Part shown: in pieces, positions 38,955 to 63,021 of the stretch | How positions within the stretch are numbered: position 1 is the stretch's first letter | Layout: every line of letters starts with the position of its first letter | Source of the DNA: a bacterium | Lineage (GTDB): Bacteria > 4484-113 > JAFGCY01 | Direction: 5' to 3' | DNA length: 64,000 bases | Assembly: GCA_020440645.1 (NCBI GenBank) | Contig: JAGRNR010000004.1 | Span: 12,762-76,761, forward strand | Program-made: the position numbers and the translations under genes | Notes under the pieces: generated by a model | Told to the model about the DNA's origin: nothing | The model's database searches: none | Seen by the model: the letters and a program-made list of their open reading frames with translations, nothing else

Positions 38955-39011
38955 TATCATTTCGCCTTCGCGCCACAAGCGCGGGATGGTTCATAAAAGG
39001 AGTAATCAGTC

Positions 39012-41285: not shown

Positions 41286-41312
41286 TGCCCGTTGAATGCA
41301 AGGACGGACCAT

Positions 41313-42743: not shown

Positions 42744-42812
42744 TTACTGTAATTCAAAGTTCCCTGATGGGTAACATAAGGTATGCGACAGGTGGATGAA
42801 TTGAGGCACAAC

Positions 42813-45177: not shown

Positions 45178-45180
45178 TTG

Positions 45181-46212: not shown

Positions 46213-46247
46213 TCGCAATGGCAATGGCATTGACAGGAGCAGAAACG

Positions 46248-47312
46248 ATGCGCAGTCGCAGGGGTTTTACACTGGTGGAGATGCTGGTCGTGATCGGCAT
46301 CATCGGACTGCTGGTGGTGACACTCGTCCCACTGGTCAAGGGTGCACAGGTCAAGGCCAAGGAAGCGGCCATCAAGGCCCAGATGTCCGGCATCGAGACA
46401 GGGCTTGCCAACTATGCCCAGAACCACAATGGCAACTACCCCGGCGTGGCACTGGATGCGATGGCGACCTACCAGGACCATGCGCTCGGTGATCCGCAGT
46501 TCTATGCGGGTGGCGGCGCCGGTTCACTGGCCCCTCAGGCCAACCAGATGGTCAACGGCATCCTCGGTGGCGTTGGCCACTACAACGGCTCCAGCACAAA
46601 CGTGTTCGAGCAGATCAAGAACGTCAAGGACACCCCGTTCAGCGGCAATGAGGACACCGCCCGCCTGTTCGACTCCCTGATCCTGACGGACAGCATGCCG
46701 GAGTACCCGGCCAACCCATTCGTCACGAACGTGAACACCGCCAGGCGTGACCAGATGCGCAACGTGTTCCGCTTCAACATCAACATCGGCGGCGGTTTCG
46801 ACCCGGCTGATGTGTTCGAGCCGGGCAACCCCTCTCCCGGCGGTTATGACGTCTCCTTCTACTGCTCGATCAAGGGTGATGGCAGCCAGCCGAACGTAAC
46901 CACTGCCACGGACCCGTTTGACAGTGCCCGTACGCTGGTCTCCCAGGACCCGACCGGCCTGCCGCTGGCGAGCTTCACCCCGGACGACTACGTCTTCGGC
47001 CCGAATGATGGCCGTTACTTCGCCCCCGGTGATTTCGCTTACGTGCCCGTACTGAGCGCGAGCGCAAATCCCTTCGGTGACAGCGCGGCCACTCTCGAGA
47101 ACGAGACCTGGAAGTGGGGCACCAATGTGAGCGGGTACCTGCTTTTCGCCTACGGTGATGCAAAGCACGAGACCAAGGAATACGAGGACGAGCAGCGCGA
47201 GTTCTTCGACACCGGCCTGCCCGGTTACGGCAGCCCCGGCGTGGATACCCTTTATGAGTGGTACGTGCTGCAGCTGTTCGAAGGCGCAATCTTCTACAGC
47301 AAGAAGGTCTGA
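46248..47312 (+). CDS. Prepilin-type N-terminal domain protein (pseudopilin-like 5, ~354 aa)
   Basis: MRSRRG|FTLVEMLVVIGIIGLLVVTLVPLV; AGGAG SD 8 nt upstream of ATG 46248 (ORF track starts 46218). Confidence 0.7.
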   Translation: MRSRRGFTLVEMLVVIGIIGLLVVTLVPLVKGAQVKAKEAAIKAQMSGIETGLANYAQNHNGNYPGVALDAMATYQDHALGDPQFYAGGGAGSLAPQANQMVNGILGGVGHYNGSSTNVFEQIKNVKDTPFSGNEDTARLFDSLILTDSMPEYPANPFVTNVNTARRDQMRNVFRFNINIGGGFDPADVFEPGNPSPGGYDVSFYCSIKGDGSQPNVTTATDPFDSARTLVSQDPTGLPLASFTPDDYVFGPNDGRYFAPGDFAYVPVLSASANPFGDSAATLENETWKWGTNVSGYLLFAYGDAKHETKEYEDEQREFFDTGLPGYGSPGVDTLYEWYVLQLFEGAIFYSKKV

Positions 47313-47318
47313 TGCCGC

Positions 47319-47337
47319 GCGCCGGCTTATCCGGCGC
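47319..47337 (+). terminator. GC-rich hairpin GCGCCGG-cttat-CCGGCGC just after the stop of pseudopilin-like 5 (no T-tract)
   Basis: Perfect 7-bp stem read from sequence; lacks U-tract, so its function as a terminator is uncertain. Confidence 0.3.
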
Positions 47338-47473
47338 TGGCCAAGGGCAATTTCCGGCGGGGGCTTTTGAGTGCCGCCGCAGCTGGGAATAACAGGTATA
47401 GGCACCCCGTCTGCTTACAGATTGGCGGGGGCACTCTCAGGCCGGCTGGCGACAGGCCGGCCCAGGTGAGCGG

Positions 47474-49330
47474 ATGATCAAGAACAGATACAGACGCAAC
47501 GGTTTCACCCTGATCGAGGTGCTGGTGGTGGTACTCATCGCCGCCATCGTCTTCTCGGTGATGTTCACCGTGCTCGGCACATCCTTTGAGGTGCTGCGCG
47601 TTGGTGAGAGCCGTGCCCAGCTGAACAACAACACACGAGCGGCCCTGGATTACGTGGTGAATGACATCAGCACCGCGACCTCCATTCCGCTGGAGTATGA
47701 CCGCGACATCAACGGTTACCCCGATGACCTGCCGTACACCAATGGCGAAGGTTATGACGAGGATGCCGTCTGGCGCGTGGCCTGGCGGGTCAACAACCTG
47801 CCGGTGATCTCCGCGGGTTACTTCCTGAGCTGTGCCTGGAGTGACAGGCTGCGCCTGACCCACCAGTCTCTTGTGGCCGACACCCCCCGGGGCAGCAACC
47901 AGACCTTCGCCGTGCCGAAGGCGATCCGCCGCGACGGCTCCCGCGAGCTGGTCTACTACGACAGCCTGCTGCGCCTCGTGACCCCGGCCAACGATGAAAT
48001 GCCTTACTACCTGTCCGGTGAGTGGGATCGCAACGGAGACGGTGTTTTCGACGGTGCTGACCTGCAGAACTCCGGCCCCGGTGCCGGCCGTGGCGTGCTG
48101 GACGGCTACCCGGATGTGGTGGTCTCCGGTGCCCAGAAGGAAAGCTCCGTGCTGGTGCAGGACCTGTTCTACGCCTTCGCTGACAGCCCGGACATCGTGC
48201 GCCGTGAGCGCCAGATCCCGATCAGCGGCAACATCACCCGCGTGAAGTACGAGTACCTGCACGAGGTGCCGGTCTACCTCTCGCGCGTGAACGGCGGCAA
48301 CGTCGAGATCTGCTACCAGAGCCTGCTTGACGGCAGCATCAACTGGATTGCCGCCAATGATGAGCGTGACAATTCGATGGTTGGCATGGAGCCCCTGGTG
48401 GACCACTGGGAGATGCGCCAGATCGACGTGGCCTTCAACGGCACCGACGGGTTCTACGTGGATCCGGACACCGGCGCGCAGTACGGCGGCTTCAGCTGGA
48501 AGCTGCAGGACAGCTACCCCGAGGGCTTCGACCCGCTGAAGCTGACCGGTGACCACGTGGCCCCGCCGACCGGAGTCGGCCTCGGTGAGGTGACCGGCGG
48601 CACACTGACCAGCGGCTGGAACTGTGCCGTGTTCGACAACATCGATTCCAACGGCGACGGTCGCAACGATAACTCCCCGATCGACCGCTTTGCCTATGTG
48701 ACCACCAGCGTGAGCGGTGGTGAAGTGATTGACGGTGGCATCGCACAGTTGCGTCCCGACATGGAGCGCCTTCACGGTACCGGCTATTACCAGCGCAGCC
48801 TGAACCCGACCGGCGTCGGTGACCTTGGCGATGCGGACGGCATCCCTGACGGCGATGGCATCCCGGATGACCCGGTGCCCGGCTGGTGGCTGCCCTACAT
48901 GCGCGCCGTGCGTGTGACCGTGGTGTCCACACCGAACGATGTGATCGAGGAGCGCCGCAACAAGAGCGGTAAGGCTGGCAAGACCGGTTCCACCGTGTAC
49001 TACCGCCTCGACAGCCCGATCCCCTTCTCGGATCCTTCCCGCACCCAGCCGCTGTACAACCAGCAGGCTGACTACATCGGCGTCAACAAGGACCTGGTGA
49101 TGACCCGCACGGTCCCGGTCAACAGCCCCCTGGTGGAGAGCGGAGCCTATCCGTACTACCTCGAGCTGATGACCAGCCCGCGTGACAGCCGGATCCAGGA
49201 GCGCCGCGTGGACCAGAACGTGTTCGACGCGGTACGCACCCTGTTCCGCGATCCGCTGGATCCGAGTGCGACCATCCGGGCCAGCACTCCCTCGGAGAAG
49301 CTGCAGGAAAAGGACCCGGTCTCGAACTGA
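47474..49330 (+). CDS. Large (618 aa) prepilin-type N-terminal domain protein (minor-pilin-like 6)
   Basis: MIKNRYRRNG|FTLIEVLVVVLIAAIVFSVMFTVLG; long body with no other recognised domain. Confidence 0.7.
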   Translation: MIKNRYRRNGFTLIEVLVVVLIAAIVFSVMFTVLGTSFEVLRVGESRAQLNNNTRAALDYVVNDISTATSIPLEYDRDINGYPDDLPYTNGEGYDEDAVWRVAWRVNNLPVISAGYFLSCAWSDRLRLTHQSLVADTPRGSNQTFAVPKAIRRDGSRELVYYDSLLRLVTPANDEMPYYLSGEWDRNGDGVFDGADLQNSGPGAGRGVLDGYPDVVVSGAQKESSVLVQDLFYAFADSPDIVRRERQIPISGNITRVKYEYLHEVPVYLSRVNGGNVEICYQSLLDGSINWIAANDERDNSMVGMEPLVDHWEMRQIDVAFNGTDGFYVDPDTGAQYGGFSWKLQDSYPEGFDPLKLTGDHVAPPTGVGLGEVTGGTLTSGWNCAVFDNIDSNGDGRNDNSPIDRFAYVTTSVSGGEVIDGGIAQLRPDMERLHGTGYYQRSLNPTGVGDLGDADGIPDGDGIPDDPVPGWWLPYMRAVRVTVVSTPNDVIEERRNKSGKAGKTGSTVYYRLDSPIPFSDPSRTQPLYNQQADYIGVNKDLVMTRTVPVNSPLVESGAYPYYLELMTSPRDSRIQERRVDQNVFDAVRTLFRDPLDPSATIRASTPSEKLQEKDPVSN

Positions 49331-49344
49331 CCTGAAGCAAGAGA

Positions 49345-49379
49345 ATGGCCCGGCAACGTCCGGGCCATTTTTGCTTTTA
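49345..49379 (+). terminator. Canonical intrinsic terminator ATGGCCCGG-caacgt-CCGGGCCAT + TTTTGCTTTT
   Basis: 9-bp GC-rich stem, 6-nt loop, downstream T-tract; 15 nt after the stop of gene 47474-49330. Confidence 0.7.
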
Positions 49380-49458
49380 CTGCACGGATGTGAAGGCTCA
49401 ATTTTCTATATATATGGTGTAGATTCCCAGCTCTTGGGAATAATAAACTGCGAGGCTT

Positions 49459-52400
49459 ATGCGCACTTACACAAATCTCGTTGGTGGGTCCCCGGAAAGC
49501 GGCAGTGCTTCCACGGCTGACCTCACCCCTGGAACTGATATGACTGGAATATCCAATGGCGGAAACACCCCTCAGCACGCCCCTTGCGGGCAGCTCCGCG
49601 GACGCGCTGTGAAGCGCGGCCACCGGGGCGTCGTGCTGCTGGCCGTGATCATCTTCGTGGCGCTCCTGCTCCCGCTGGTGACGCTGGTCCTGACCAGCCT
49701 CAACACGGAAGCGGTCAGCACCGCAGAGGCGATCAAGGGCCACAAGCTGGACCTCGCGAGCCAGAAGGCGCTTAATGACGCCATCTCGCTCGTGGTGCAG
49801 CAGAAGTCCCTGCCGGACTATTACAGCTCGGCCAACCAGCCGGCCACGGCGATCGTCGTGCTCGACCCGGTCAGCGGCTTCCGCCGTGACCAGGTGCCGG
49901 ACAGCGGCGTGGTCGGTGCTGCGGGCCTCGACGACATCCTCGGCACGGGAGACGACTACTGGACCAGTCCCCGTGGCGACCGTTCCGTGCTGCCGACGGA
50001 TGTCTACGACCACACCCGCAACTATGAGTTCGACTTCAGCTTCAGCCAGATGCATTCGCCGACCTACCTCGGCCAGCCCTCGCTGCTGTCGTCAACCAAC
50101 CGCTACAACGGCACGAGCCCGAACACCGGCGAGACCATCTGGCTGTTCAACCCCTACCTGGCGGTGGCGGTTGACGATGATGCCGACGGAATTGACGACG
50201 GTTACGACCCGAACGACGCCGGTGGCGACCCGTTTGACGGCAAGGAGGCCCAGCTGCATGGCAACGGTGGTTTCCCGAATGCTGACGAGCCCCGTCTGAA
50301 CGGGCCCGGAAGTGCCGTCGAACGCAGCCTTGACAACGGAAACAACATCCGGGACTACATGCTCAACTCGCGCATCGCGATCTACGAGAGCGTGTTCACC
50401 GACCTCGACCGCGGCCCCGTGCCGACGGACCTGCTGAAGAGCTATGCCGACGTGACCGATGAGGCCGGCCGCATCAACCTGAACATCTTCTGCAAGAAGG
50501 TGCGCGTGCTGATGCCGGAGGCCGCCGACGTCGACTACAACCTCGAGGGCCTGGCAACCAACGACTTCAACTACAACGAGCAGCTCAACGAGCTCGGCTT
50601 CAAGTGGATTGACAACCCGCTGTTCCCGGACCGCCTGACCAACCAGCGCTGGAACTGGAACATCCCGGCCGGCACGCTGTCCAATGACGGCGATATCGAC
50701 TTCGGTACGCTTGACCCGTCCACCGGCATCCCGGACCCGACCCCGGACGGCTACTCCTGGCCTGACCTGGGCGAGAACGTGCAGCACTTCTACCTCGGCG
50801 ACACCGATGGCGACGGCATTTCCCAGGGCAACGAGGCCGCGCGCCACAGTGTCGAGATGCTGACCAGCCTGCCTGGCGTCGACCTGGAGCTGGCACTCAA
50901 CATCCTCGAGTACCTCAACCCGAGCCAGGACACGCTCAACGCGATCGACCCGGGCTACGCTGATGGCAGCGTCGAGCCCAACATCGACCCGACCATCGGC
51001 GCCGCGGGCTACCGCTATGACGTGGCCAACGTCACCCCGCCGCTGACCGCGCTCGGCATCAACCTCGCGGGCGGCACCGTCGGCAGCATCTTCTGGGACT
51101 TCGCCGCCAGCGATGAGGACGACATGCCGCTGCCGCAGCCCTTCGCGCTTTCGAGCCTGGACCAGCTGCTCAACGTGCCCGGCATGACCCGCGCCAAGTT
51201 CAACAGGCTGAAGGACTACCTGACGATCCACAGCTATGACACCAACGTGATCGGCACCTACATCACCGACGTCGGCCCGGATGCCGACCTGGTGAACGCC
51301 TACGAGGCCGGTGACCCGTTCTTCTTCGGCCAGGTGCGCCGCACCGTGCCGGATGACATGCGCGACACTGACAATGTCAACGACCTGCGCTACGACGTCA
51401 CCGCCACCGCCGGCGGTTTCTCGCTCGAGGACTACCGCGACCGCGCGGAGGAGATGTACGCCTACATCCGCGAGCACCTGCCGAGCACCAACTTCCGCAA
51501 GATCACCCTGCCGGCGGTCGACCGCACCGGCCGCAGTGGCGCGTCAGACCACATGACGCCCAATGACGACCCGCGCTACGACCCGACCGGTGGTGGCCTG
51601 CTTGTGCCGCACCGCGACAGCGAGGCCAACCCCTACAACGTCGGCGCCTTCGGCCACCAGTTCCCGACCAGCGACGAGGCCTTCACGAACTTCGCCGGCT
51701 ACCCGGCGCTGAACCCCGAGTTCAGCCTGGACAGCTGCCTTTCAATCGTGCTCTACCGCAACGGTACGCCGTTCACCGCCGATGACTACACCTACGACTG
51801 GAACGGCGTGAACATGGCTGCCCACCCGGCCAGCCCGGGCATCGGCAACCTGTTCGGCGGCGGTGCGTTCTTCTTCATCGAGCGCATCTTCGGCATCTTC
51901 GGCGGCGGCTTCGACTTCGGTCCGAACAACAACCCGCCGGACGGCTTCGACTTCGCCACGCTGGCCAACACGAACAATGCCAACCCGGTCGTCACTCCGC
52001 ACGGCCCCGGCGTGTTCACCGCTGCCAACCTGCTCAACCCGGGCACCTTCGACAGCGCGGCTGACCTGCTGCAGGTCCCGCTCTACGAGTTCAGCAGCAT
52101 GAGTGTCAGCCTGATGTCCGACCCGCCGTCAGACTACCGTGACCCGATTGTCAACCAGAACGGCATCGTGAGCTACTACGCCACCTTCAGTGACGTGGTG
52201 CCGGTCAGCTGGTACTTCGACAACGTGACCGGCCCCGACGGCAACCTCGGCACGGCAGATGACCCGGCGCAGGACGTGGTGCTGTACATGCTGTACTTCA
52301 ACTACGCCAACCGCACCGGTGTGTTCCCCTCCGCGGGTGGCCCGTATGACGCTCCCTCGCTCAGCGCTGACACGGTGCAGATTCCGCTCACCGCGCAGCA

Positions 52401-55400
52401 GATCCGCTCGGTCAGCCCGGTGTTCCCCGGCATGACCGGCAATGTCACGATCCAGGCCTATGACAACTTCAACAACCTGGACGTGCTCGGCCCCGACTTC
52501 ACCAACAGCCCGGCATTCGCCAGCACGCTGGCCCCGCTCGGCGGCGTCGGCAGCCTCGGCCGCAACTTCAGCTACCAGCAGGTCCCGTACCCGCTGGGTG
52601 GCGGCGTGACGGATGATGGCAACTGGCGCCCGAACGAGGGCAATGCCTGGGACACCGGTGTGGCCCCGGTGCAGTGGCCCGGCTGGGCCTGGACCGGTGA
52701 AGGCGACCCCTACGCCACCGGCCGCATCCTGGCCTACCGCTGGGATGACAATGCCAATGAGCCGGAGGACCCGGAACTGCGCGCGGATGACATCACCAAG
52801 GTCTTCCTGCAGAACAACACCGAGGCCGCGATCCCGTTCGCGGTCAACATCCTGCCGGTGCGCACCGGTGGCGACACATATGACATCTACTCCAGCTACG
52901 GCGGCGCGGACACCTCCGGCGGCGGCAGCTACCTGCTGTTCGACTGGGAGTACCGCGACACGCTCGGCCCGGATGACGACCCGGATGACTTCGACGGCAC
53001 CTGGCCGACGGAGCAGCCCGGGCAGCTGATCAACAACCCGATCCAGATCCGCGTCAACCCGGAGGGCAACACGGTCACGCTGCACATGTATGACCTGCGC
53101 AGCTTCGTTGACTCCAGTGGCCTGCCGATCGCCAGCGGCACGCCTGCGCTGCCCGGCAACATCTATGCCGGCGGCCGCGTGCAGACCACCCCGTCTGACG
53201 GCGGCACCTTCCCGGTGGACTACGGCGGTGGCTACCCGCCGGTGCCGACTGCTGGCTATGCCTTCGACAGCGCCGTGATCTCCCCGATCGAGACCGCCGC
53301 CGGCTTCCAGGCCCAGCTTGCCAGCCATGAGGTCTCCGTGTTTGACAACGACACCAGTGTCGAGGTCGAGATGAGTGCCGCCGGTGGCGACCTGAACTAC
53401 AACTGGGAACTGCGCGTGCTTGACGCGACGCTTGGCAACGGTGCCGGCGGCCCCTACCAGGGTCCCGACGGTGCCGGCCCGATCGCCAGCTTCCCCGGCC
53501 TCGGCAGCCCGCCGCGTCCGTCCCGCGTCACTCCCCCGGGATTCGACTATGCAGCCGCCGAGCTCGTGCCCGGCACCCTGCTGGTCGTGGCCGGCAGCAG
53601 CAGCAGCCCCGAGTGGAACACATTCTTCGACCCGAGCGGCCTGCCGAACAACACCGAGTACTGGCTGCGCCTGCGTGTCACCGAGAACGGCGGCACGACG
53701 GACACCGTGTTCAGCAAGCTCGTGAAGGACGACGAGTCCTCCAGCAGCACCGGCACCGCCATCCCGCCGGAGATGAACGCCAGCATCACCCTGCGTGAGC
53801 TCGGTGACAGCCGCCTCGGCTTCACCGCGAGCGCTTCCGTGGACGGCGGCCGTGACGGCTACGGCTACTACTGGGTCCTGACCCGCCCGAAGTACAACGG
53901 CACCGGCAACCACGTGCTGGACAGCGCAATCCCGATGGAGACCGTCGACGCGGCGGCCCCGATCGTGAACCTCGACAGCCTGACGACCGGCGGCGGTGCG
54001 GTCAGCACCACGGTGCAGATGCGCTCCAACGACGCCAGCCCGAGCTTCGAGTTCAGCCAGCTTGACAACTATGACAACGAGACCGGCGCGGCCGGCGCGG
54101 ACGGCATCCCGGATGCGCAGGGTGTGTACTTCGTGCACTGCTTCGTGCTCGACCGCAACAACCTGCTGCCCTCCAGCGGCCAGTCTTTCATCGCGCATGA
54201 CGTGGCGCAGGTGACCCTGAGCAACCTCGGCACCGGCGGCAGCGGAGTGCCCGACACCTCCGGCATCGCCCGCACCCCGATGGCGGTGCTGGCGGCGAAC
54301 CCGCCGGGCAATGCCAGCATCTCAGCCGGCACCAACAACAGCGCCGCCGGTGGTGCGAACCCGCCCTACATCGGCAGTGCGACCATCGACCCGGCAATTG
54401 AGCCCGACGTGGCCGCCAACGGCCAGGCGATCGTGATCCGCGGTTTCAACTTCGACCCGGTTGCCAGCAACAACACCGTGCACTTCGCCGGTGGCGTGAG
54501 CGCGACCGGCGCCGGTGTGACGGCCCCGAGCGGAGTTGACATCCTCAACATCGGCGGCTCGCCCTACGGCCAGCAGGAGCTGACCGTGCGCGTGCCGGAC
54601 GGCGCCCGCACCGGCTTCATCACCGTGCAGACCCCGGGTGGCACCAGTGATCGCCGCTACATCTTCCAGACCGGCTTCAACGTGACCTTCGACCTGATCG
54701 GCAGCCTGTCCGTGAATGATGCGGCCTACCTGCAGTACGACCTGGACTTCCAGGGCGACGGCAAGATCGACTACAGCTACAGCTCACTGAGCAACCCGTC
54801 CGGTGGACGCCAGCTGATCGGCAGCAACCTCGGCATCACCCATGACTACGCCGGCGACGGCATCGGCAACTACAACGCCACCCTGACGGTCAAGGACCTC
54901 GTCAGCGGGCGCACCGCCGTCAGCCACCAGCTGGTGATGATCCATGACCTTGCCAACGTGAGCGGCACGAACCTCGTGCTTGCCAGCGGCTTCATCGGCA
55001 ACATCTTCCTGGCCGGCACGCCGTCCTTCACGGATGGTGCAGCGAGCTTCATCAGCGCCGGCGTGCTGCCGGGCGACCTGGTGACCAACCTGAACACCGG
55101 AGCCACCACCAGCGTTGTCAGCGTGATCTCGCAGAACGAGGTTGGCTGCGGCAGCCTGAGCGCCCCGCAGTGGAACATCGGCGATGCCTACAGCATCAGC
55201 CGCTTCGTTGACAGCAACGGCGCCTACGGCATCCTGGCCGACATCTGGCCGGACATCGACACCCGCGGTGCCAGCTTCAACCCGCAGCCCGGCAGTGGCC
55301 TGGCCTTCCGCAGCGCGGTCGGCGGCATCAACACCGCCCTGGCCCGCCGCAAGTGGCAGATCGACCTGAACGGCACCAGTGGCACCCGTGGCGGTGAGCA

Positions 55401-58400
55401 GGTGACCTCCGGCAACTCCACCAGCAACGAGCCCTCCGGTACGGTGCTGCGTGACACGAACAACAACTTCGCCCAGGCTGGCAGCCGTGGCGTGAGCGTC
55501 GGCGACCTGGTGCTGAACATCACGGATGGCTCCACGGCCAACGTGCTTGACGTCGTCAGCGGATCCGAGCTGCGCCTGAGCAACCCGGGCGACCCGAGCT
55601 TCGGCACGGGCCTCGTGAACGGCACCGGCGTGAACCGCACCGGCGTGGTTGATGGCAATTCCGTCAACCAGGTGATCGACCAGCTGGCGGCCCCCTACGA
55701 CTTCGTCGGTGACATCAACGGCCCGGCGCAGGGTGGCATCATGGTGGGCGACACCGTGCTGCAGACCCGTGACGGCGTGCAGATCGGCACCTGGACGGTG
55801 AGCAGCACCGCCAACAGCCCGGGCATCCTCGACGTGGTGAACAACACCTTCACCGGTACGCAGACCGCGACCGTGAATGCCTTCACCGACAACGGCGGCG
55901 GCAACTGGGACATCACCCTCAACCGCTTTGCCAACAACAGCCTGATCGGCCTGGTCCTCACCAACGTGACGGATGGCAACTCCACCTGGACCATCACCGC
56001 CTTCAACGGCGGCAATGACCTGACGGTGCAGCTGATTGCTCCCGGCGCGGGCCTCGGTGTGTTCAACATCGGTGACCTGGTGAGCATCAACGCGGTGCCC
56101 GCCGAGTGGGTGGTCGATGACATCTGGACGGTCAACATCCCGGCCAACCAGTTCCGCATCGGCTACGAGTACGAGATCTTCACGGAGAACGGCTTCAGTG
56201 GCAACGCCTGGGCGGATGCCACCTTCGCCGACTTCAACACGCCGATCGAGTTCCACATCGAGATGAACTACCCGTTCGACCTGAGTGCCGCCGGCGCAGC
56301 CGCCAGCTTCATCGAGGTTGACTGGGACAACGACAGCGTGGTCGACGACATCTTCTTCGTCGCCGACACTACCCGTGGCGATGGTACGCAAAACGGCATC
56401 GAGGTCGAGAACGCGGTGATCACCCACAGCTTCGGGGCTGGTCCCGAGCTCAATGGCGCCGGCTACACAGTCGGCCGCTACTGGGTGAACTCCTTCGCCG
56501 CTGGCCAGACCGGCAGCGAGCGCTACGGCGGTGGTGCGGGCTTCGCCCTGCCGGTGGTGCGCGTGGGACGTGACGATTACGACACGGACCTCAGCACCCT
56601 GAACGTGGCGCAGTGGAACAACAGCCGTGACCACAAGGTGACGATGACGGCGCTGTACCAGACCTTCGCCACCCTGACTGACAACCCGCTGCCGGGCAGC
56701 ACCAAAAATGCCGTCCGCCAGTACGAGACCGTCGACCAGCTCTACGTGCCGCGCGGTGACAGCCAGTTCGCCACGAGCCTGACCAACTGGGTCAGCTACA
56801 GCTCGCCCTTCATGACGAGCAACGTGCCGGGCATCACCCAGATGCTGCACCAGTCGGTGCATGGCGAGGGCAGCAGCTTCAACTGGCTGTCCGATGCCAA
56901 CGCCAACACGCTGTGGAACAACGACGGCAGCGAGAGCCCGCAGGATGGCAACCCGTCCTCGACCTACGAGTACGCAGTCAACAACGGCTTCAACAACTGG
57001 GCCGAGGTCCCGCTGAACGTGCGTGGCGCCAGCTTCCCGCAGGCCGCCCCGAACGTCGGCCGCCCGCAGCCCAACGGCATCTTCGACTACTACACCGCCC
57101 GTCGCGGCGTGTACAACGGCTGGGCCTGGAGCAGCGACGTGCTGCCCTCCAGCCAGCGCAGCTTCAGCTTCGACAGCCAGGCCGTGTTCGTCGGCGACCG
57201 CAACGGCTCGTCCAGCCCTGAGCGCCGTGCACTCGGTGTGGACATCTACATCGATTCCATCGTCGCCAGCAACAGTGACCCGATCCGCTTCACGGCCTTC
57301 CCGAGCGGCGGTGCCAACGAGTTCAACTCCTACAGCTACCGCTGGTTCGTCGAGTACGACAACGGCGGCGGCTTCCAGCCGGTCGACATGGACAACAACA
57401 CGACCACCAACCCGCCGGTCTCCGCCAGCATCTCCGGGCCGATCCTCGTGCCCTACGAGGACATCCAGGACGAGGCGTTCTGGGTGCCCGCTGACAGCGG
57501 TGCCGGCGCATGGCGCGTCTGGTGCGAGGTCAGCGACGGCAGCGGCGTGGTCAACTCCGCGATGAAGACCTTCACGGTCGTCGAGCCGCCGCACAGCGTG
57601 CACGTGATGGCCACCCCGCCGAGCGGCAGCACCGGTGAGTTCATTGAGTTCTGGGTCTCCGCGGACGGCGGCACCCCGGGCTACGACCTCGAGATCGACT
57701 ACGACGGCGACGCCGTGTATGACGATGTGGTGACGGTCGGCGACGGCAGCATCCACATCTTCGGCAACGTCTACAACACGCCGGGCACCTACAACGTCGA
57801 GGTGCGCTCGACCGATGACAGCGGCAACGTCGCGACTGACACCACGGTGGTCCGTGTCGCGGAGAGCATCCCGCTGTGGGGCGACCTGATCGTCAACCCG
57901 CCGAGCGGCGTGGCTCCGTTCATCGCCCAGGTGCACTACGCCGTCAGCGGTGGTCGCAGGCTGGCCGACGGCGGTTACAACGTGAACCTCGCCCTGCTTG
58001 ACAGCAGCGGTTCCAGCCAGGGCAGCGTCAGCCGCACCGATGCCGACAGCTTCGGCGGCGACGGCCCGGATGACCCGCGCCTGCCGGGCGGCAACGATGA
58101 GCCCGTGACCTTCGTGGTCCCGAGTGCCGGCACCTACACCGTGCAGATGACCGTCAGTGACAACAGCGGCGGCGTGGTCACCGTGAACGACACGATCTTC
58201 GCGGACGGCTACATGACCCCGATCGAGTACGGCAACACCGCGCCGCGCGTGGTGACCGACCGTGAGGGCCGCCCGATGCACGCGGTGCGCATCTGGACCG
58301 ACCCGCACCTGACGCTCAGCGATGACACCACCCAGGTGTTCGGCAACAAGCCGGACTCCGAGGGACGTGGCGGCCGCCTGATGGAGGCCGACCTGCAGGT

Positions 58401-59982
58401 GTTCGGTGACATCGTCGGTGTGGACACCAACCAGGCCTTCCGCTCGATCGGCAACTACGCCTCCAAGGACCCGCTGGACGTGCCGCAGTGGCAGGTCAGT
58501 TACAGCCAGGGCTTCTTCGGCAATGCGAACATCGAGGACTACTACGACACCTACACCGAGGGCCGTGTGAACATCAATACCGCCTCGGAGGAAGTGCTGA
58601 CCGCGCTGTTCCGCAAGATCATCACAAACCGTGCCTATGACTATGACGTGGTGGATGACATCGATAACAACGGTGTGAACGAGACCTACCACTTCGTACG
58701 TGACCAGGTGAACGACAGCCACATGTCCGAGGCTGCCGCCCGCGTGCTGGCCCGCAAGGTGATCCGCTACCGCACCCTGTACTACGACCAGAACAAGCCG
58801 ACGCCGGCTGATGCCGACGGCAACTTCGGTTACACCCAGAGTGCGAATGCGGCTGCTGCCTCCCTCAACCTGGGTAACTTCCGCGTGGACCACCTGCCGA
58901 TGATCGGCCCGTTTGACGGTACCAACCCGCACCAGTACGGCATCGCCAACCGCGATGGCGCGCTGGGCCAGGCCAACACCCAGATGCTCAACACCTGGGA
59001 CAACATGGCCGGCAGCTACTACAACCTGAACAACGGCGATGCCGCGAACATGTTCTACTCCACGAGTGACATCGCGGTGGTGCGTGAGCCGCTTGCCATC
59101 AACATCGGCATCGATGTGGACGGCGACGGCGTGCCGGAGCCGGGCTTCAGCTTCAACGTGAACGAGAGCAAGGAGAACTACGCCAAGTACCTCAACGACG
59201 TGGCGAGCAACAGCAACTGGGAGAACAACCGCTACGCCGGCGGTGGCGGATTCGGTACCTGGGCGGCCACCGGCCAGTACCCGTCCGACAACAGCGGCAA
59301 CAACTACTCCCGCTGGTCCTTCGACGCCCGCCACTACTTCACCTACAGCAGCGGCAACCAGGGTCTGACCGTCGGTACGGATGGCAGCTTCAGCCTGGGT
59401 GCCCTGACCGGTGTTGAGGACGTGGTGGACGGCCGCAACAGGGTCGGCGTGTTCGAGTCCAACGGCGTGACCGCGGGTACCTACATCCCGAACCCGCCGT
59501 TCCAGAACATCTTCGACCTCTACAAGGTGATCGACGACTCGGCCGGCAACCAGAGCTTCCCGCTCACCGGTACGCTGGATGCGACCATCACGCTCAACGG
59601 CAATGACCGCTCGTCCGGCCTGCGCCGCTACTCCGGCCCGTCCGCCTTCCGTTACGAAGAGTACTGGGATGCTGGCGCAGGTGAGTTCGTGGTCCGCTCC
59701 AACTGGCTGGACGACATCGCCCCGTTCATCACCTGCCGCAGTTACGTCTACCGTGTGGACTCCAGCGCGGCGATCACCGCCAGCGGCGGAACCTCCAGCG
59801 CCCTGCTGGATACCTCCACCCTGGCCCGTGACCGCTCGAAGACCGTCATCCTTGATGCCGGCCCGCTGGCGAACAACCGTGGCGTGGACCAGATTTCCGA
59901 CCTTGACGCCTCCAGGGGTCTGATCAGCCCGGCACGCAGTGCCAGCTACAAGATCCTCTGGTTCTCGGATAACTCCGAGTAG
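49459..59982 (+). CDS. Giant (3507 aa) GspK-like minor pseudopilin fused to adhesin-type repeats (IPT/TIG, PKD/Ig-like, Asn/Gly/Thr-rich beta regions)
   Basis: N-terminal KRGHRGVVLLAVIIFVALLLPLVTLVL hydrophobic segment lacking Glu+5 (as in GspK, QRGVALLIVLL…). HhH-like motifs GRINLNIF (50464-50500), LDQLLNVPGMTRAKFNRLKDYL (51159-51225) and C-terminal GRVNINTASEEVLTALF (58561-58620). IPT-like domain ~54361-54660; PKD-like ~57630-57870 and ~57880-58200. GAGG SD before ATG 49459; alternative in-frame GTG 49609. 10.5-kb uninterrupted ORF flanked by terminators. Confidence 0.8.
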   Translation: MRTYTNLVGGSPESGSASTADLTPGTDMTGISNGGNTPQHAPCGQLRGRAVKRGHRGVVLLAVIIFVALLLPLVTLVLTSLNTEAVSTAEAIKGHKLDLASQKALNDAISLVVQQKSLPDYYSSANQPATAIVVLDPVSGFRRDQVPDSGVVGAAGLDDILGTGDDYWTSPRGDRSVLPTDVYDHTRNYEFDFSFSQMHSPTYLGQPSLLSSTNRYNGTSPNTGETIWLFNPYLAVAVDDDADGIDDGYDPNDAGGDPFDGKEAQLHGNGGFPNADEPRLNGPGSAVERSLDNGNNIRDYMLNSRIAIYESVFTDLDRGPVPTDLLKSYADVTDEAGRINLNIFCKKVRVLMPEAADVDYNLEGLATNDFNYNEQLNELGFKWIDNPLFPDRLTNQRWNWNIPAGTLSNDGDIDFGTLDPSTGIPDPTPDGYSWPDLGENVQHFYLGDTDGDGISQGNEAARHSVEMLTSLPGVDLELALNILEYLNPSQDTLNAIDPGYADGSVEPNIDPTIGAAGYRYDVANVTPPLTALGINLAGGTVGSIFWDFAASDEDDMPLPQPFALSSLDQLLNVPGMTRAKFNRLKDYLTIHSYDTNVIGTYITDVGPDADLVNAYEAGDPFFFGQVRRTVPDDMRDTDNVNDLRYDVTATAGGFSLEDYRDRAEEMYAYIREHLPSTNFRKITLPAVDRTGRSGASDHMTPNDDPRYDPTGGGLLVPHRDSEANPYNVGAFGHQFPTSDEAFTNFAGYPALNPEFSLDSCLSIVLYRNGTPFTADDYTYDWNGVNMAAHPASPGIGNLFGGGAFFFIERIFGIFGGGFDFGPNNNPPDGFDFATLANTNNANPVVTPHGPGVFTAANLLNPGTFDSAADLLQVPLYEFSSMSVSLMSDPPSDYRDPIVNQNGIVSYYATFSDVVPVSWYFDNVTGPDGNLGTADDPAQDVVLYMLYFNYANRTGVFPSAGGPYDAPSLSADTVQIPLTAQQIRSVSPVFPGMTGNVTIQAYDNFNNLDVLGPDFTNSPAFASTLAPLGGVGSLGRNFSYQQVPYPLGGGVTDDGNWRPNEGNAWDTGVAPVQWPGWAWTGEGDPYATGRILAYRWDDNANEPEDPELRADDITKVFLQNNTEAAIPFAVNILPVRTGGDTYDIYSSYGGADTSGGGSYLLFDWEYRDTLGPDDDPDDFDGTWPTEQPGQLINNPIQIRVNPEGNTVTLHMYDLRSFVDSSGLPIASGTPALPGNIYAGGRVQTTPSDGGTFPVDYGGGYPPVPTAGYAFDSAVISPIETAAGFQAQLASHEVSVFDNDTSVEVEMSAAGGDLNYNWELRVLDATLGNGAGGPYQGPDGAGPIASFPGLGSPPRPSRVTPPGFDYAAAELVPGTLLVVAGSSSSPEWNTFFDPSGLPNNTEYWLRLRVTENGGTTDTVFSKLVKDDESSSSTGTAIPPEMNASITLRELGDSRLGFTASASVDGGRDGYGYYWVLTRPKYNGTGNHVLDSAIPMETVDAAAPIVNLDSLTTGGGAVSTTVQMRSNDASPSFEFSQLDNYDNETGAAGADGIPDAQGVYFVHCFVLDRNNLLPSSGQSFIAHDVAQVTLSNLGTGGSGVPDTSGIARTPMAVLAANPPGNASISAGTNNSAAGGANPPYIGSATIDPAIEPDVAANGQAIVIRGFNFDPVASNNTVHFAGGVSATGAGVTAPSGVDILNIGGSPYGQQELTVRVPDGARTGFITVQTPGGTSDRRYIFQTGFNVTFDLIGSLSVNDAAYLQYDLDFQGDGKIDYSYSSLSNPSGGRQLIGSNLGITHDYAGDGIGNYNATLTVKDLVSGRTAVSHQLVMIHDLANVSGTNLVLASGFIGNIFLAGTPSFTDGAASFISAGVLPGDLVTNLNTGATTSVVSVISQNEVGCGSLSAPQWNIGDAYSISRFVDSNGAYGILADIWPDIDTRGASFNPQPGSGLAFRSAVGGINTALARRKWQIDLNGTSGTRGGEQVTSGNSTSNEPSGTVLRDTNNNFAQAGSRGVSVGDLVLNITDGSTANVLDVVSGSELRLSNPGDPSFGTGLVNGTGVNRTGVVDGNSVNQVIDQLAAPYDFVGDINGPAQGGIMVGDTVLQTRDGVQIGTWTVSSTANSPGILDVVNNTFTGTQTATVNAFTDNGGGNWDITLNRFANNSLIGLVLTNVTDGNSTWTITAFNGGNDLTVQLIAPGAGLGVFNIGDLVSINAVPAEWVVDDIWTVNIPANQFRIGYEYEIFTENGFSGNAWADATFADFNTPIEFHIEMNYPFDLSAAGAAASFIEVDWDNDSVVDDIFFVADTTRGDGTQNGIEVENAVITHSFGAGPELNGAGYTVGRYWVNSFAAGQTGSERYGGGAGFALPVVRVGRDDYDTDLSTLNVAQWNNSRDHKVTMTALYQTFATLTDNPLPGSTKNAVRQYETVDQLYVPRGDSQFATSLTNWVSYSSPFMTSNVPGITQMLHQSVHGEGSSFNWLSDANANTLWNNDGSESPQDGNPSSTYEYAVNNGFNNWAEVPLNVRGASFPQAAPNVGRPQPNGIFDYYTARRGVYNGWAWSSDVLPSSQRSFSFDSQAVFVGDRNGSSSPERRALGVDIYIDSIVASNSDPIRFTAFPSGGANEFNSYSYRWFVEYDNGGGFQPVDMDNNTTTNPPVSASISGPILVPYEDIQDEAFWVPADSGAGAWRVWCEVSDGSGVVNSAMKTFTVVEPPHSVHVMATPPSGSTGEFIEFWVSADGGTPGYDLEIDYDGDAVYDDVVTVGDGSIHIFGNVYNTPGTYNVEVRSTDDSGNVATDTTVVRVAESIPLWGDLIVNPPSGVAPFIAQVHYAVSGGRRLADGGYNVNLALLDSSGSSQGSVSRTDADSFGGDGPDDPRLPGGNDEPVTFVVPSAGTYTVQMTVSDNSGGVVTVNDTIFADGYMTPIEYGNTAPRVVTDREGRPMHAVRIWTDPHLTLSDDTTQVFGNKPDSEGRGGRLMEADLQVFGDIVGVDTNQAFRSIGNYASKDPLDVPQWQVSYSQGFFGNANIEDYYDTYTEGRVNINTASEEVLTALFRKIITNRAYDYDVVDDIDNNGVNETYHFVRDQVNDSHMSEAAARVLARKVIRYRTLYYDQNKPTPADADGNFGYTQSANAAAASLNLGNFRVDHLPMIGPFDGTNPHQYGIANRDGALGQANTQMLNTWDNMAGSYYNLNNGDAANMFYSTSDIAVVREPLAINIGIDVDGDGVPEPGFSFNVNESKENYAKYLNDVASNSNWENNRYAGGGGFGTWAATGQYPSDNSGNNYSRWSFDARHYFTYSSGNQGLTVGTDGSFSLGALTGVEDVVDGRNRVGVFESNGVTAGTYIPNPPFQNIFDLYKVIDDSAGNQSFPLTGTLDATITLNGNDRSSGLRRYSGPSAFRYEEYWDAGAGEFVVRSNWLDDIAPFITCRSYVYRVDSSAAITASGGTSSALLDTSTLARDRSKTVILDAGPLANNRGVDQISDLDASRGLISPARSASYKILWFSDNSE

Positions 59983-60027
59983 TGACAAAGACTGGTATCA
60001 CCCAGTCCTGCAATTGAGACGATTTAT

Positions 60028-60062
60028 GGACCCCCGGAGCTAATCCGGGGGTCTGTTTTTTC
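60028..60062 (+). terminator. Canonical intrinsic terminator GGACCCCCGG-agctaat-CCGGGGGTC + TGTTTTTTCC
   Basis: 10/9-bp GC stem, 7-nt loop, T-tract; 46 nt after the giant gene stop. Confidence 0.75.
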
Positions 60063-60105: not shown

Positions 60106-60134
60106 TTGACAAGAGATTTTTCCTAGCTTAAAAT
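60106..60134 (+). promoter_or_regulatory. Near-consensus sigma70-type promoter TTGACA-N17-TAAAAT for the secretin/pilM unit
   Basis: TTGACA 60106-60111, 17-nt spacer, TAAAAT 60129-60134; predicted TSS ~60141; ~110-nt leader to ATG 60250 (SD GAGGAG). Confidence 0.55.
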
Positions 60135-60249
60135 ATCCAAATTGCACCGTAGCCCCGTGCTACTGTTAGCGCTGCACAGTTGGATACTGCCCTGTTGGTA
60201 TGGGCAGGAAATTACACGGATTGTTAATCTGTCCGTGAGGAGCGATTGG

Positions 60250-63021
<2,772 letters not shown>

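Follow-up and report, generated by a model that had tools for sequence, protein, structure and literature searches.

GspK caps the GspIJK tip, and the domain inserted in GspK is thought to confine it to that position (PMC7248040). Subunits of the PilK family are completed by a terminal β-strand, which is provided either in cis (GspK, CpaL, and ComZ) or in trans (PilC/PilY1), and the members that provide the strand in cis tolerate large insertions (PMC13533445). For the type IVa subunits PilX/PilK, the tip adhesin PilY1/PilC is attached in trans by β-strand addition (PMC13533445), and PilX-type subunits are without an α-domain (PMC7248040). Insertions of the CpaL/TadG/ComZ type comprise a few hundred residues (~470 aa for the middle region of CpaL) and are located either inside the pilin sheet or between it and the terminal donor strand (PMC13533445, PMC7248040). 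Modular pilins displaying functional modules occur widely (PMC8179133), and the binding modules of Streptococcus sanguinis PilB/PilC, ETEC CofB, and Saccharibacteria PilX1/PilX2 are of the vWA, lectin, β-propeller, and Ig-like types (PMC8179133, PMC11623550). In these proteins, which are <~900 aa long, the module is C-terminal to a complete pilin module; the extreme named is a protein of 860 aa (PMC8179133). Omnitrophota encode very long attachment-domain-rich proteins beside gspD/E/F-like and small class III signal-peptide genes; many transmembrane regions as well as SecA-DEAD domains were described in these giants, which were not reported to be pilin-like (10.1101/2023.11.21.568195).

The window analyzed here, a 64,000-nucleotide stretch of DNA from a UBP7 bacterium, contains a giant ORF whose product is likely a GspK/PilK-family protein serving as the apical subunit of a type IV filament, either T2SS-like or type IV pilus-like. 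On the sequence evidence, ~2,430 family-conserved residues interrupt the α-domain of GspK in this protein, precisely at the junction between its two helix-hairpin-helix subdomains. The features of the gene and its surroundings are collected in Table 1.

Table 1. Positions, in the window, of the giant gene, the parts of its product, and the neighboring genes and signals.
Feature	Position	Strand	Evidence or remark
GspH/FimU-like minor pseudopilin gene, 483 aa	41292..42743	+	G/FSLIE, Glu+5; N_methyl E 5e-6; best NCBIfam match GspH E 4e-10, sub-threshold
PilV/GspI-like minor pseudopilin gene, 371 aa	42783..43898	+	Glu+5; N_methyl E 1e-7; PilV 7e-7, GspI 1.5e-5, sub-threshold
Three tandem GspG-like (major pseudopilin-like) genes, 340-364 aa	44155-45177, 45178-46212, 46218-47312	+	All Glu+5; N_methyl
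GspJ/PilW/HpsC-like minor pseudopilin gene, 618 aa	47474..49330	+	Glu+5; N_methyl E 3e-7
Terminator-like GC-rich hairpin and T-run between GspJ-like and giant genes	49341..49380	+	-22 kcal/mol
Giant ORF, likely GspK-family tip pseudopilin	49459..59982	+	3507 aa from first ATG
Probable true start M28 and ~30-aa positively charged leader to putative prepilin-peptidase site ...KRGHRG57/V58	49540..49629	+	Start position kept family-wide
Hydrophobic α1-N helix (VVLLAVIIFVALLLPLVTLVL, no Glu+5) and amphipathic α1-C helix, aa 51-127	49609..49839	+	hhalign, GspK HMM
D334-E-A-G-R-I-N-L-N342 strand motif, = GspK D99-x5-N105-x-N107	50458..50484	+	Family-invariant; colinear with GspK 100-112
First helix-hairpin-helix-like element of α-domain (EMLTSLPGVDLELALNILEYLNP, aa 465-487)	50851..50919	+	Alternative hhalign match, GspK ~131 onward
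End of T2SSK_1st-equivalent subdomain (…LSSLDQLLNVPGMTRAKFNRLKDYLTIHSYDTN, aa 557-596), last GspK-like piece before insertion	51127..51246	+	HMM, hhalign
Insertion, aa ~600-3025 (~2,430 aa)	51256..58533	+	Asp/Asn/Gly/Thr-rich, Lys- and Cys-poor
Marginal IPT/TIG-like segment, aa ~1652-1712	54412..54594	+	Pfam TIG E 0.76
Variable, indel-rich center of insertion, aa ~1850-2250	55006..56208	+	Occupancy 0.49-0.82, identity 0.13-0.31
Two Ig-like β-sandwich domains, PKD (aa 2715-2798) and PPC/PKD-like (aa 2837-2905)	57601..58173	+	Pfam
α-Domain resumption, GRVNINTASEEVLTALF… (aa 3035-~3100), = start of Pfam T2SSK (GspK I-N217-x-N219)	58561..58758	+	Pfam, hhalign, HMM
Family-specific C-terminal region, aa ~3101-3408	58759..59682	+	Invariant NYAKYLND, FDARxYF, NPPF, SGPSxFRY (family alignments)
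Putative closing β-strands of pilin domain (…NWLDDIAPFITCRSYVYRVDSSAAITASGG…RDRSKTVILDAG…SYKILWFSD)	59683..59979	+	Weak colinear match, GspK 263-307
Terminator-like hairpin and T-run, 44 nt past giant stop	60026..60062	+	-24 kcal/mol
σ70-like promoter match, TTGACA-17-TAAAAT (11/12), ahead of secretin gene	60106..60134	+	Consensus match only
Secretin gene, outer-membrane channel, 959 aa as called from TTG	60142..63021	+	Pfam Secretin E 3.5e-28, Secretin_N E 3e-6

Gene Neighborhood

The gene order is H-I-G-G-G-J-giant-secretin-PilM-PilN fusion, which places the giant gene at the gspK position, and this synteny is conserved in >20 loci. Six prepilin genes with Glu+5 precede the giant gene, the only pilin-like gene of the cluster without Glu+5. 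A pilin-type helix that lacks Glu+5 is the hallmark of the one subunit with none above it, and no other GspK candidate was found by the GspK HMM among the 504 ORFs of the window. The three GspG-like proteins are mutually 28–32% identical, with GspG as the top NCBIfam match for each (E 1e-7 to 7e-12, sub-threshold). The GspJ-like gene has its top NCBIfam matches in HpsC, Verru_Chthon cassette protein C, and T2SS protein J, none of which reaches its threshold. A gene of ~560–580 aa is located directly 5' of the giant gene in distant loci (L012–L014, L024, and L026), and the GspJ-like product is predicted to be the partner of the giant protein in the tip complex. The secretin gene follows the giant gene in every locus reaching far enough, and in one of these (L002) it is followed by the PilM-PilN (GspL-like) fusion. 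Neither an ATPase nor a platform protein nor a prepilin peptidase was found in the neighborhood covered, which comprised 41 kb upstream and ~10 kb downstream.

Verru_Chthon cassettes of Verrucomicrobia encode, beside the three prepilin-type proteins B–D, a large protein A (TIGR02600); no literature on it was found, and the giant protein gives no NCBIfam match to TIGR02600 at E≤1. The upstream GspJ-, GspG-, and GspH-like genes match Verru_Chthon cassette proteins C and D weakly, suggesting that the cluster is a related pseudopilin cassette of the PVC type in which one member is very large.

The two terminator-like hairpins with T-tails that bracket the giant gene were found at 49341–49372 and 60026–60056, within a few nucleotides of where the first-pass annotation had placed them. 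From the presence of these hairpins, the giant gene may be transcribed by itself, as had been proposed. The 5' hairpin is conserved in close relatives (L003/L004 and L009) and not clearly in more distant loci, and a 3' GC-rich hairpin occurs at the same distance, with other stem sequences, in L003/4, L006, L009, L012, and L026. The number of σ70-like matches in the region, including the one ahead of the secretin gene, equals the expectation from shuffled sequence.

Reading Frame, Start Site, and Conservation

The giant ORF is a single uninterrupted frame of 3507 codons plus stop, as had been claimed. In the distant orthologs just one in-frame start is possible, 29–30 codons ahead of the Gly and after a conserved CCAGGA/CCTGGA, and the ATG of M28 (nt 49540) is found at the same place in the window. 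Because the distant orthologs share this one start position and M28 matches it, the true start is probably 49540, giving a protein of 3480 aa. The GAGG Shine-Dalgarno sequence reported earlier is indeed present 5' of the ATG at 49459, but its spacing to that ATG is just 3 nt. The N terminus, ...KRGHRG/VVLLAVIIFVALLL, comprises a basic leader ending in Gly, a putative cleavage site, and a hydrophobic helix, with RGHRG/VVLLAVIIF at aa 53–67. Ala occupies position +5 after the putative cleavage at Gly-57, in agreement with the reported absence of Glu+5, and the family motif RG/V(A/V/I)LL lines up with the GspK N terminus QRG/VALL. Pfam N_methyl gives no match on the giant protein, as expected for K-type subunits.

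The protein is conserved end to end in >20 independently assembled genomes or contigs of the candidate phylum UBP7 and its relatives, as colinear, uninterrupted orthologous ORFs of 2,562–3,807 codons; the colinear full-length orthologs measure 2562–3747 aa. Intact ORFs were found at 11 genome loci and at 7 further metagenome loci that partly overlap the former. An assembly chimera, or separate genes or pseudogene fragments joined by chance read-through, is thereby effectively refuted. The one observation that points that way is an ortholog on a 339-kb contig (L001) split by ~10 frame shifts, yet even this copy is colinear over aa 56–3460. Uninterrupted N-to-C colinear orthologs are present in CP060262.1, a closed chromosome whose copy is 98% identical over the C module, as well as in ~20 further independent assemblies from different studies.

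GspK Landmarks and the Position of the Break

The family profile of the giant protein was compared by hhalign with an alignment of 32 bona fide GspKs, with reversed profiles as nulls. GspK/XcpX is represented by PDB 3CI0 (chain K) and 5VTM, Pfam PF21687 and PF03934, and NCBIfam NF037980. Five GspK landmarks were found in GspK order. Among the 10 full-length orthologs that were examined, four landmarks show no variation. The N half matches GspK 8–89 and 181–213, and the C half matches 214–234 and, weakly, 267–307; taken by themselves, the N half scores 44.5 against 181–213 and the C half 45.8 against 214–234. The joined N+C profile aligns across the junction with a score of 77.4 (probability 95.9%, E 6.4e-9). 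Null scores from reversed profiles are ≤19, compared with 45–77 in the real comparisons. The N half thus stops at GspK position ~213, where the C half picks up at ~214, and the N-terminal helix, the NLN strand, the first helix-hairpin-helix, and the terminal strands give further colinear matches. With the GspK HMM, the giant ORF is the sole match among the window ORFs (E 2e-5 at Z=4000), and 20/20 orthologs match in the same colinear pattern. The window protein breaks at HMM 209–216/212–215, as do the 17 orthologs with both flanks matched; the N-side flank was not detected in the other 3. In Escherichia coli GspK this position is the boundary between Pfam T2SSK_1st (103–211) and T2SSK (216–274). 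Gene context, profile comparisons, the HMM, and the shared break point support the earlier reading, in which an insertion of ~2400 aa interrupts a GspK-like tip pseudopilin.

The N-terminal helix aligns with GspK 7–90 (hhalign score 48, probability 69–79%), and GspK HMM 4–80 corresponds to aa 52–128. It is modeled as one long helix, with pLDDT of 72–85 over the first ~30 residues and <60 beyond. All the motifs quoted in the first-pass annotation are present, including GRINLNIF (aa 337), LNVPGMTRAKFNRLKDYL (aa 571), and GRVNINTASEEVLTALF (aa 3035). GRINLNIF, however, is not a helix-hairpin-helix as had been proposed; its counterpart in GspK is the conserved D-x5-N-x-N strand motif, in which N107 is invariant and D99 and N105 nearly so. 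The α-domain of two consecutive helix-hairpin-helix-like subdomains is present, but split. Before the break, the NCBIfam GspK model 172–208 matches aa 556–592 (E 4e-5), Pfam HHH_3 matches aa 565–589, and GspK HMM 177–211 is matched in orthologs. After the break, Pfam T2SSK positions 1–17 match aa 3037–3053 and GspK HMM 212–273 matches aa 3033–3096; in the GspK alignment N217 is invariant and N219 nearly so. The family-specific region that follows has no counterpart in canonical GspK and no Pfam or PDB match. The closing strands give an hhalign score of 23 against the null of ≤19, and their HMM domain by itself is not significant; S3428-x-x-Y3431 (family consensus F) has the spacing of the nearly invariant GspK S286/F289, and the terminal strands are kept in all orthologs. 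The D-x5-N-x-N and S-x-x-F motifs are both at colinear GspK positions, and each alignment is weak taken singly. The N and C modules are themselves ~3x larger than canonical GspK, with family-specific regions.

Two partial GspK-like modules, arisen by duplication around an adhesin, would be a very unlikely explanation for this arrangement. An NLN-type motif does occur twice (GRINLN at aa 337 and GRVNINTA at aa 3035), but canonical GspK has both motifs as well (N105/N107 and N217/N219). An alternative hhalign register places positions 408–535 of the concatenate (aa ~458–585) of the N half against GspK 130–280, whereas in the main matches the two halves do not overlap and complement each other exactly (N half, 8–213; C half, 214–307), and the C half lacks its own hydrophobic helix.

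The segment that matches GspK most strongly is helix-hairpin-helix-like, and ComEA has this motif too; the first such element gives a weak match to ComEA (2duy), with pLDDT of 66–74 in the 24-row-alignment model. Pfam HHH_3 (ComEA-type) is detected in 11/24 family rows (best E 3.5e-7), and DNA-binding tip pilins with large insertions are known (ComZ; PMC7248040). A GspK-type tip that captures DNA through a ComEA-like helix-hairpin-helix, in a competence-type filament as for ComZ of Thermus and with the insertion as a spacer or scaffold, nevertheless seems quite unlikely. Helix-hairpin-helix-like elements are structural in every GspK α-domain, with no known DNA binding there, and comEC and dprA were not found in the neighborhood seen. 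With D+E at 11.9% and K+R at 5.0%, the giant protein is poor in Lys and strongly acidic, which is unfavorable for DNA binding.

The curated GspK models score below cut-off on the window protein (NF037980, 23.2 bits versus 130; PF03934, T2SSK, 15.2 versus 24.2), and PF21687 (T2SSK_1st) gives no match on it, with PF21687 and PF03934 each matching weakly in 3–4 orthologs. AlphaFold2 models of the N+C concatenation, a test proposed beforehand, are of low confidence, with pLDDT of 33.4 from the single sequence and 43.8 from a 24-row alignment, and the best Foldseek match of these models in the PDB is to an unrelated protein (E 0.22). The shortfall against the curated models, the absence of fold support from AlphaFold2, and a top-scoring helix-hairpin-helix-like segment on which Pfam HHH_3 scores equal those of the T2SSK families would all fit a very large surface or secreted adhesin that is not a filament subunit, acting as a secretion-system substrate or accessory, PilY1-like in function, with an uncleaved signal-anchor and a ComEA-like helix-hairpin-helix. 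The Omnitrophota giant proteins, which adjoin T2SS-like loci and are not described as pilins, could be cited in its favor as well (10.1101/2023.11.21.568195). We regard such an adhesin as unlikely, since the five landmarks occur in GspK order, including the RG/V..LL helix without Glu+5, D-x5-N-x-N, and S-x-x-F, and the two helix-hairpin-helix halves adjoin to the residue in GspK coordinates. The cluster, moreover, has H, I, G, and J, but no other K, and the PilY1/PilC propeller was not detected.

The Insertion

Across the family the insertion is 1,700–2,700 aa long and conserved at 25–50% identity. Its Asn/Gly/Thr/Asp-rich composition, as first described, was confirmed. Self-BLAST revealed no internal repeats, Pfam gave no matches in aa 601–1400 and 1801–2600, and the family profile found no PDB relatives of the insertion besides PKD domains. 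The PKD-like domains of the first-pass annotation are clearly present, with Pfam PKD at aa 2715–2798 (E 2e-9) and a second, PPC/PKD-like domain at aa 2837–2905; PKD_4 (E 8e-8) and PPC (E 4e-6) also match in the region of the pair. The family profile matches the clostridial collagenase PKD domain 4jgu (E 5e-5), and PKD is detected in 7/24 family rows. The IPT/TIG-like domains claimed alongside them are marginal in the window protein (E 0.76), with E 1e-4 in one ortholog, and the segment is located in a well-conserved stretch (aa 1601–1800, 43–49% identity). Outside the variable center, family identity is 0.3–0.5, and BLAST alignments to several orthologs break at the center. An adhesin-type insertion with an adhesive role may be inferred only from the domain types, that is, the two PKD domains and the marginal TIG signal. 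The proposal of a PilY1-like adhesin fused to GspK holds as a functional analogy only, because no homology to PilY1/PilC was detected; the PilC/PilY1 β-propeller (PF05567/IPR008707) gives no Pfam or NCBIfam match at E≤1 with the whole protein or with pieces.

Proposed Assembly and Comparison with Known Systems

In the assembly that we envisage, the N-terminal helix would anchor the giant protein in the inner membrane, and the ~2,400-residue loop would be exported and folded first, after which the C-terminal module would come back, complete the α-domain, and give the last β-strands of the pilin sheet in cis. The finished K module would then be bound by the adjacent GspI-like and GspJ-like pseudopilins and prime polymerization of the three GspG-like subunits. 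The α-domain would cap the GspI-J-K tip, and the insertion would therefore be displayed at the filament apex, as an out-and-back loop of β-rich, partly Ig-like domains (PKD and possibly IPT/TIG). The variable center, aa ~1850–2250, would be farthest from the cell and could form the ligand- or surface-binding end. The tip adhesin, which is supplied in trans as PilY1/PilC in type IVa pili, would here be part of the K subunit. We tentatively propose that the UBP7 filament cap might be one ~370-kDa polypeptide, in which the α-domain tolerates insertions and serves as the platform for a stalk of ~250 kDa that runs out and back and is variable at its distal end, and that the tip might be threaded through an unusually long secretin. 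To our knowledge, the passage of a ~370-kDa tip through a secretin would be unprecedented.

If this proposal is true, the GspK α-domain, so far without clear function, would have a role as a display platform, and the solutions of an adhesin in trans (PilY1) and in cis would have evolved at a third, previously unseen K-subunit site. With a filament that is also extensible or retractile, harpoon-like attachment would be conceivable, for example cell-cell attachment or predation in activated sludge or sediments. If the reading as a GspK cap is right, the protein would be by far the largest pilin-like protein that we found described and a natural adhesin-like module within a filament tip.

The giant protein resembles the Omnitrophota giants in being very long, with attachment-type domains and a T2SS-like locus, although the Omnitrophota proteins are much larger; an exhaustive search found no sequence kinship to them. 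In concept it is like the modular type IV pilins, a pilin module showing binding modules at the filament tip, but a modular type IV pilin as defined by Raynaud et al. 2021 (PMC8179133) was rejected, as the N_methyl match is missing and the modules are inserted, not appended. Like the Tad-pilus proteins CpaL/TadG, Thermus thermophilus ComZ, and the K homolog of the Vibrio cholerae competence pilus, it would be a pilin-like tip subunit that has an internal functional or adhesin domain and donates its own closing strand. Its insertion, however, is 5x larger and inside the α-domain at GspK ~213/214, a site that rules out membership in the CpaL/TadG/ComZ type. As in PilX/PilK with PilY1/PilC, a large adhesin-type mass is predicted to be put on the K subunit at the tip, with completion of K licensing assembly; in contrast to that system the giant is one polypeptide instead of two, with no PilY1/PilC β-propeller signature, and unlike PilX-type subunits it has an α-domain. 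Compared with GspK itself, the giant protein is 10x longer, with ~2,430 aa between the α-domain subdomains, expansions in both halves, a leader of ~30 aa versus <10, and scores below the curated HMM thresholds. Like GspK/XcpX, it has the RG/V..LL helix without Glu+5, the D-x5-N-x-N strand, the S-x-x-F closing strands, and an α-domain of two helix-hairpin-helix-like subdomains with colinear profile matches, and its gene follows a GspJ-like gene and adjoins secretin and GspL-like genes.

The giant reading frame and its family

The giant gene is one uninterrupted frame of 3507 codons, as the first-pass annotation had held, and all the motifs quoted there were found in the product at the positions given. 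The two intrinsic terminators proposed to bracket the gene correspond to GC-rich hairpins with T-runs on either side of it, the downstream one recurring in relatives at the same distance from the gene with other stem sequences. We infer that the upstream hairpin could reduce read-through from the abundant pilin genes and, likewise, that the one after the gene may have a role. The GAGG reported before the gene is present, only 3 nt 5' of the first ATG. In distant orthologs the sole in-frame start is an ATG 29-30 codons 5' of the cleavage-type Gly, after a conserved CCAGGA, and the window has an ATG at the equivalent place, M28 (nt 49540). Judged from these sequences, the true product is probably 3480 aa long with a ~30-aa leader. 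The protein is acidic and rich in Asn, Gly, Thr, and Asp, with very little Lys (0.9%) or Cys. Along its coding strand the GC skew stays negative (-0.05 to -0.14) and the AT skew is positive, unlike the flanks in both respects, which probably reflects the Asp/Asn/Thr/Pro-rich composition.

With the N-terminal 617 aa as query, an exhaustive HMMER search matched only 17 proteins, 10 of which are full-length giants (2562-3747 aa) that are colinear with the window protein end to end at 30-45% identity. When the C-terminal module was used to scan collections of genomes and metagenomes, 29 loci were recovered. The ORF is intact, at 2,845-3,807 codons from stop to stop, in 11 genome loci and in another 7 from metagenomes, of which some duplicate loci already counted among the genomes. 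One of the genome loci is on the closed chromosome CP060262.1 ('HK-STAS-UBP7_A-1'); its C module is 98% identical to that of the window, and it evidently comes from the strain that yielded the window or from a sister strain. The landmarks DExGRxNLN, [IV]xSYDTN, and GRxNINTA do not vary among the ten full-length orthologs examined, and T[CT]R[ST]Y was found in nine of them. An assembly chimera as the origin of the giant is ruled out, because intact colinear orthologs from independent assemblies are too numerous. One ortholog (10001-21218 of a 339-kb contig, ERZ25039462 contig_28238) contains ~10 frame shifts and is split into about nine called genes, yet is still colinear over aa 56-3460, and the six pilin genes just upstream of it are intact; its breaks could represent long-read indel error concentrated in that gene, strain heterogeneity, or a real pseudogene. 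Family members are annotated only as 'hypothetical protein' in all sources, and our literature search found no paper describing the family.

Coordinates of the giant gene, its neighbors, and the segments aligned with GspK (window positions in nt; giant segments in joined N+C numbering)
Feature	Position	GspK profile	Length (aa)	Method
Six cluster pseudopilins	window 41292-49330			
GspH-like			483	
GspI-like			371	
GspG-like			340-364	
GspJ-like			618	
Upstream hairpin	window 49341-49372			
Giant gene	window 49459-59982 (+)			
Downstream hairpin	window 60026-60056			
Secretin gene	window 60142-63021		959	
Helix	giant 1-77	7-90		hhalign
NLN strand	giant 273-285	100-112		hhalign
First HhH	giant from 409	from 131		hhalign
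Junction	giant 501-578	178-235		hhalign
Closing strands	giant 940-973	269-302		hhalign

Relationship of the giant to GspK

The giant fails the curated GspK models, and direct scans gave only sub-threshold hints, namely NCBIfam GspK positions 172-208 at aa 556-592 (E 4e-5), Pfam T2SSK positions 1-17 at aa 3037-3053, and Pfam HHH_3 at aa 565-589. Profiles were therefore built from two alignments, one of 15 family rows in which the N module (aa 51-602) is joined to the C module (aa 3023-3507), and one of 32 diverse annotated GspKs seeded with E. coli K-12 GspK. Comparison of the two by hhalign resulted in a probability of 95.9% (E 6.4e-9), with an alignment that crosses the artificial junction: '…ELLNVPGMTxxKFxRLKDxVTIxSYDTN // GRxNINTASEEVL' of the giant (double slash, junction) aligns with the contiguous GspK '…SELRxVxGMTxxxYxxLxPYVCVLP-xxINVNT'. 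All alternative alignments are colinear. The joined query scored 77.4, and reversed-profile controls reached 19 at most. The N half alone matches GspK positions 8-89 (score 47.6) and 181-213 (44.5) and the C half alone 214-234 (45.8) and, weakly, 267-307 (23.1), so that the matched segments adjoin to the residue. A duplicated GspK was rejected, because the two halves are complementary and without overlap. Single E. coli GspG, GspH, GspI, GspJ, and GspK sequences were too weak as hhalign targets (all probabilities <10%), the 32-sequence GspK profile being the only informative one.

An HMM of the same 32 GspKs was searched, with a genome-sized Z, against a set made up of 20 orthologs and every stop-to-stop ORF in the window (504). 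The giant was the only match in the window (E 2.3e-5), the upstream pilins coming next with E > 1, and all 20 orthologs matched (E 1.9e-9 to 0.014). In the window protein, as in 17 of the 20 orthologs, both flanks of the insertion were detected; the model match stops at 209-216 and resumes at 212-215, with 1,700-2,700 aa between the flanks. This break is the boundary of Pfam T2SSK_1st (103-211) and T2SSK (216-274) in E. coli GspK, and both of these GspK-specific families match weakly in three or four orthologs. The reading already offered by the first-pass annotation, that of a GspK-like tip pseudopilin split by an insertion, is supported by sequence profiles, by synteny, and by conservation in the family. 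The giant very probably descended from a GspK.

AlphaFold2 models of the concatenated N and C modules had a mean pLDDT of 33 with no alignment and of 44 (pTM 0.34) with a 24-row alignment; in the latter, values of ~70-80 are confined to the N-terminal helix and to the HhH-like segments flanking the junction. Foldseek of this poor model against the PDB returned unrelated matches only (E 0.2 or worse), phmmer searches of PDB sequences with the N and C modules gave no relevant matches, and a family-profile hmmsearch against the PDB gave only a weak ComEA HhH match and collagenase PKD matches.

The insertion

The insertion occupies aa ~600-3025, and self-BLAST detected no internal repeats in it. 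Its conservation across the family is only moderately below that of the termini, so it is an ancient, built-in component of the protein instead of a late addition. Of the domains previously claimed for it, the PKD domain is clear (aa 2715-2798, E 2e-9) and is accompanied by a PPC/PKD-like sandwich at aa 2837-2905, whereas the IPT/TIG signal at aa ~1652-1712 is marginal (E 0.76 in the giant, 1e-4 in one ortholog). The only solved relatives of the insertion are clostridial collagenase PKD domains. Its center, aa ~1850-2250, is the most variable and most indel-rich part of the giant. The suggested fusion with a PilY1-like adhesin was rejected in the literal sense, as PilY1 homology was looked for in the giant and not found. 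Two more PKD-domain proteins of 581 and 780 aa, encoded on the minus strand at 12711-14456 and 20828-23170, are unrelated to the pilus cluster.

The surrounding gene cluster

The six genes upstream of the giant carry the prepilin N_methyl signature, and each has Glu+5, within G↓F(S/T)L(I/V)E. Their best NCBIfam assignments, all sub-threshold, are GspH, PilV/GspI, GspG (three genes), and GspJ/HpsC/'Verru_Chthon cassette C'; no papers on the Verru_Chthon cassette were found. These pseudopilins are 2.5-3 times the canonical length, with matches to known families confined to the N-terminal ~60-90 residues, and the three GspG-like paralogs share only 28-32% identity with one another. Because the subunits are oversized, the filament body may be unusually thick or decorated. 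The giant, in the gspK position, is alone among the pilin-like products of the cluster in lacking Glu+5 (RG57↓VVLLA), as its N-terminal helix had been described.

Directly downstream lies a secretin gene, whose product has Secretin_N and Secretin domains spanning only residues 554-957 and no Pfam domain in the first ~550 residues; in more distant relatives the secretin is 1,070-1,160 aa long. Its length may be related to the passage of a very large tip. In L002, a near-identical locus extending past the end of the window, the secretin gene is followed by a PilM-PilN fusion of 644 aa, an arrangement like that of GspL, and by two ORFs of 278 and 352 aa that are unannotated and for which no family assignment was found (14724-18549 for the fusion and these ORFs), and then by an Mrp/Nuo-type antiporter gene. 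The fusion weakly matches the Akkermansia Amuc_1101 family and the secretin Amuc_1098, which hints at kinship with PVC-type pilus clusters. The order giant-secretin-PilMN is kept in every locus of sufficient length, and no ATPase, platform protein, or prepilin peptidase gene was found within the locus stretch seen.

Other features of the window

The G+C content dips to 51.5% at 26001-28000, compared with ~62% in the rest of the window, over the end of uvrC and the C-terminal part of an AAA_16/TPR (STAND-like) gene (26978-29794) that has a paralog at 30758-33586. Two adjoining prolyl-oligopeptidase (S9) genes lie on the minus strand (1902-4067 and 4223-6322). At 35015-39941 an ArsR-type regulator precedes a row of three AHSA1/SRPBCC-domain genes and two glyoxalase/bleomycin-resistance-type genes, which has the look of a small cluster for stress response or detoxification.

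Proposed mechanism and significance

Every type IV filament has a GspK/PilK-family protein as its licensing cap, and the known forms of these proteins include GspK of ~300 aa, the smaller PilX, and CpaL and ComZ, which are a few hundred residues larger. A conserved family of K subunits of 2,500-3,800 aa would widen this size range about tenfold. In the GspI-J-K tip complex, GspK forms the apical cap, and an inserted domain that PilX-type subunits lack appears to confine it to the tip (PMC7248040). The last β-strand of PilK-family proteins is supplied in cis in GspK, CpaL, and ComZ and in trans via PilC/PilY1; strand completion licenses recognition by the I-J dimer and filament assembly, and cis suppliers can accommodate large insertions (PMC13533445).

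The helix lacking Glu+5 would anchor the giant in the inner membrane, and the 2,400-aa loop would be exported and then fold. The C module would next close the α-domain and the pilin sheet, whereupon the I-like and J-like neighbors would dock and the G-like subunits polymerize underneath. The insertion would exit and re-enter at one point atop the cap, so that its display at the apex would have to be as an out-and-back structure; the variable middle would then lie farthest out and is plausibly the binding end.

For research on type IV filaments the giant is of real interest. Insertion appears to be permitted where the two α-domain subdomains meet. The family is a natural experiment on the purpose of the GspK α-domain, and the protein raises the concrete question of how much folded mass a secretin can pass. 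It also bears on the idea that the timing of tip assembly is set when the C-terminus of a K subunit completes that subunit, since ~2,400 residues need synthesis and export before the closing module emerges.

Comparison with known systems

The giant proteins of Omnitrophota are near T2SS-like loci and are not described as pilins (10.1101/2023.11.21.568195); we found no sequence relation between them and the giant. The concept of modular pilins fits the giant, but the N_methyl signature is absent from it, and searches relying on that signature would miss such genes. A global modular-pilin survey of this kind named 860 aa as its most extreme case (PMC8179133). The pairing of PilX with PilY1 is similar in outcome, but the giant lacks PilY1 homology. 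CpaL/TadG and ComZ also have an insertion in cis, from which that of the giant differs in site and scale. The closest family is GspK, and we propose that the giant functions likewise, although it is 10 times longer and beyond the reach of the curated models.
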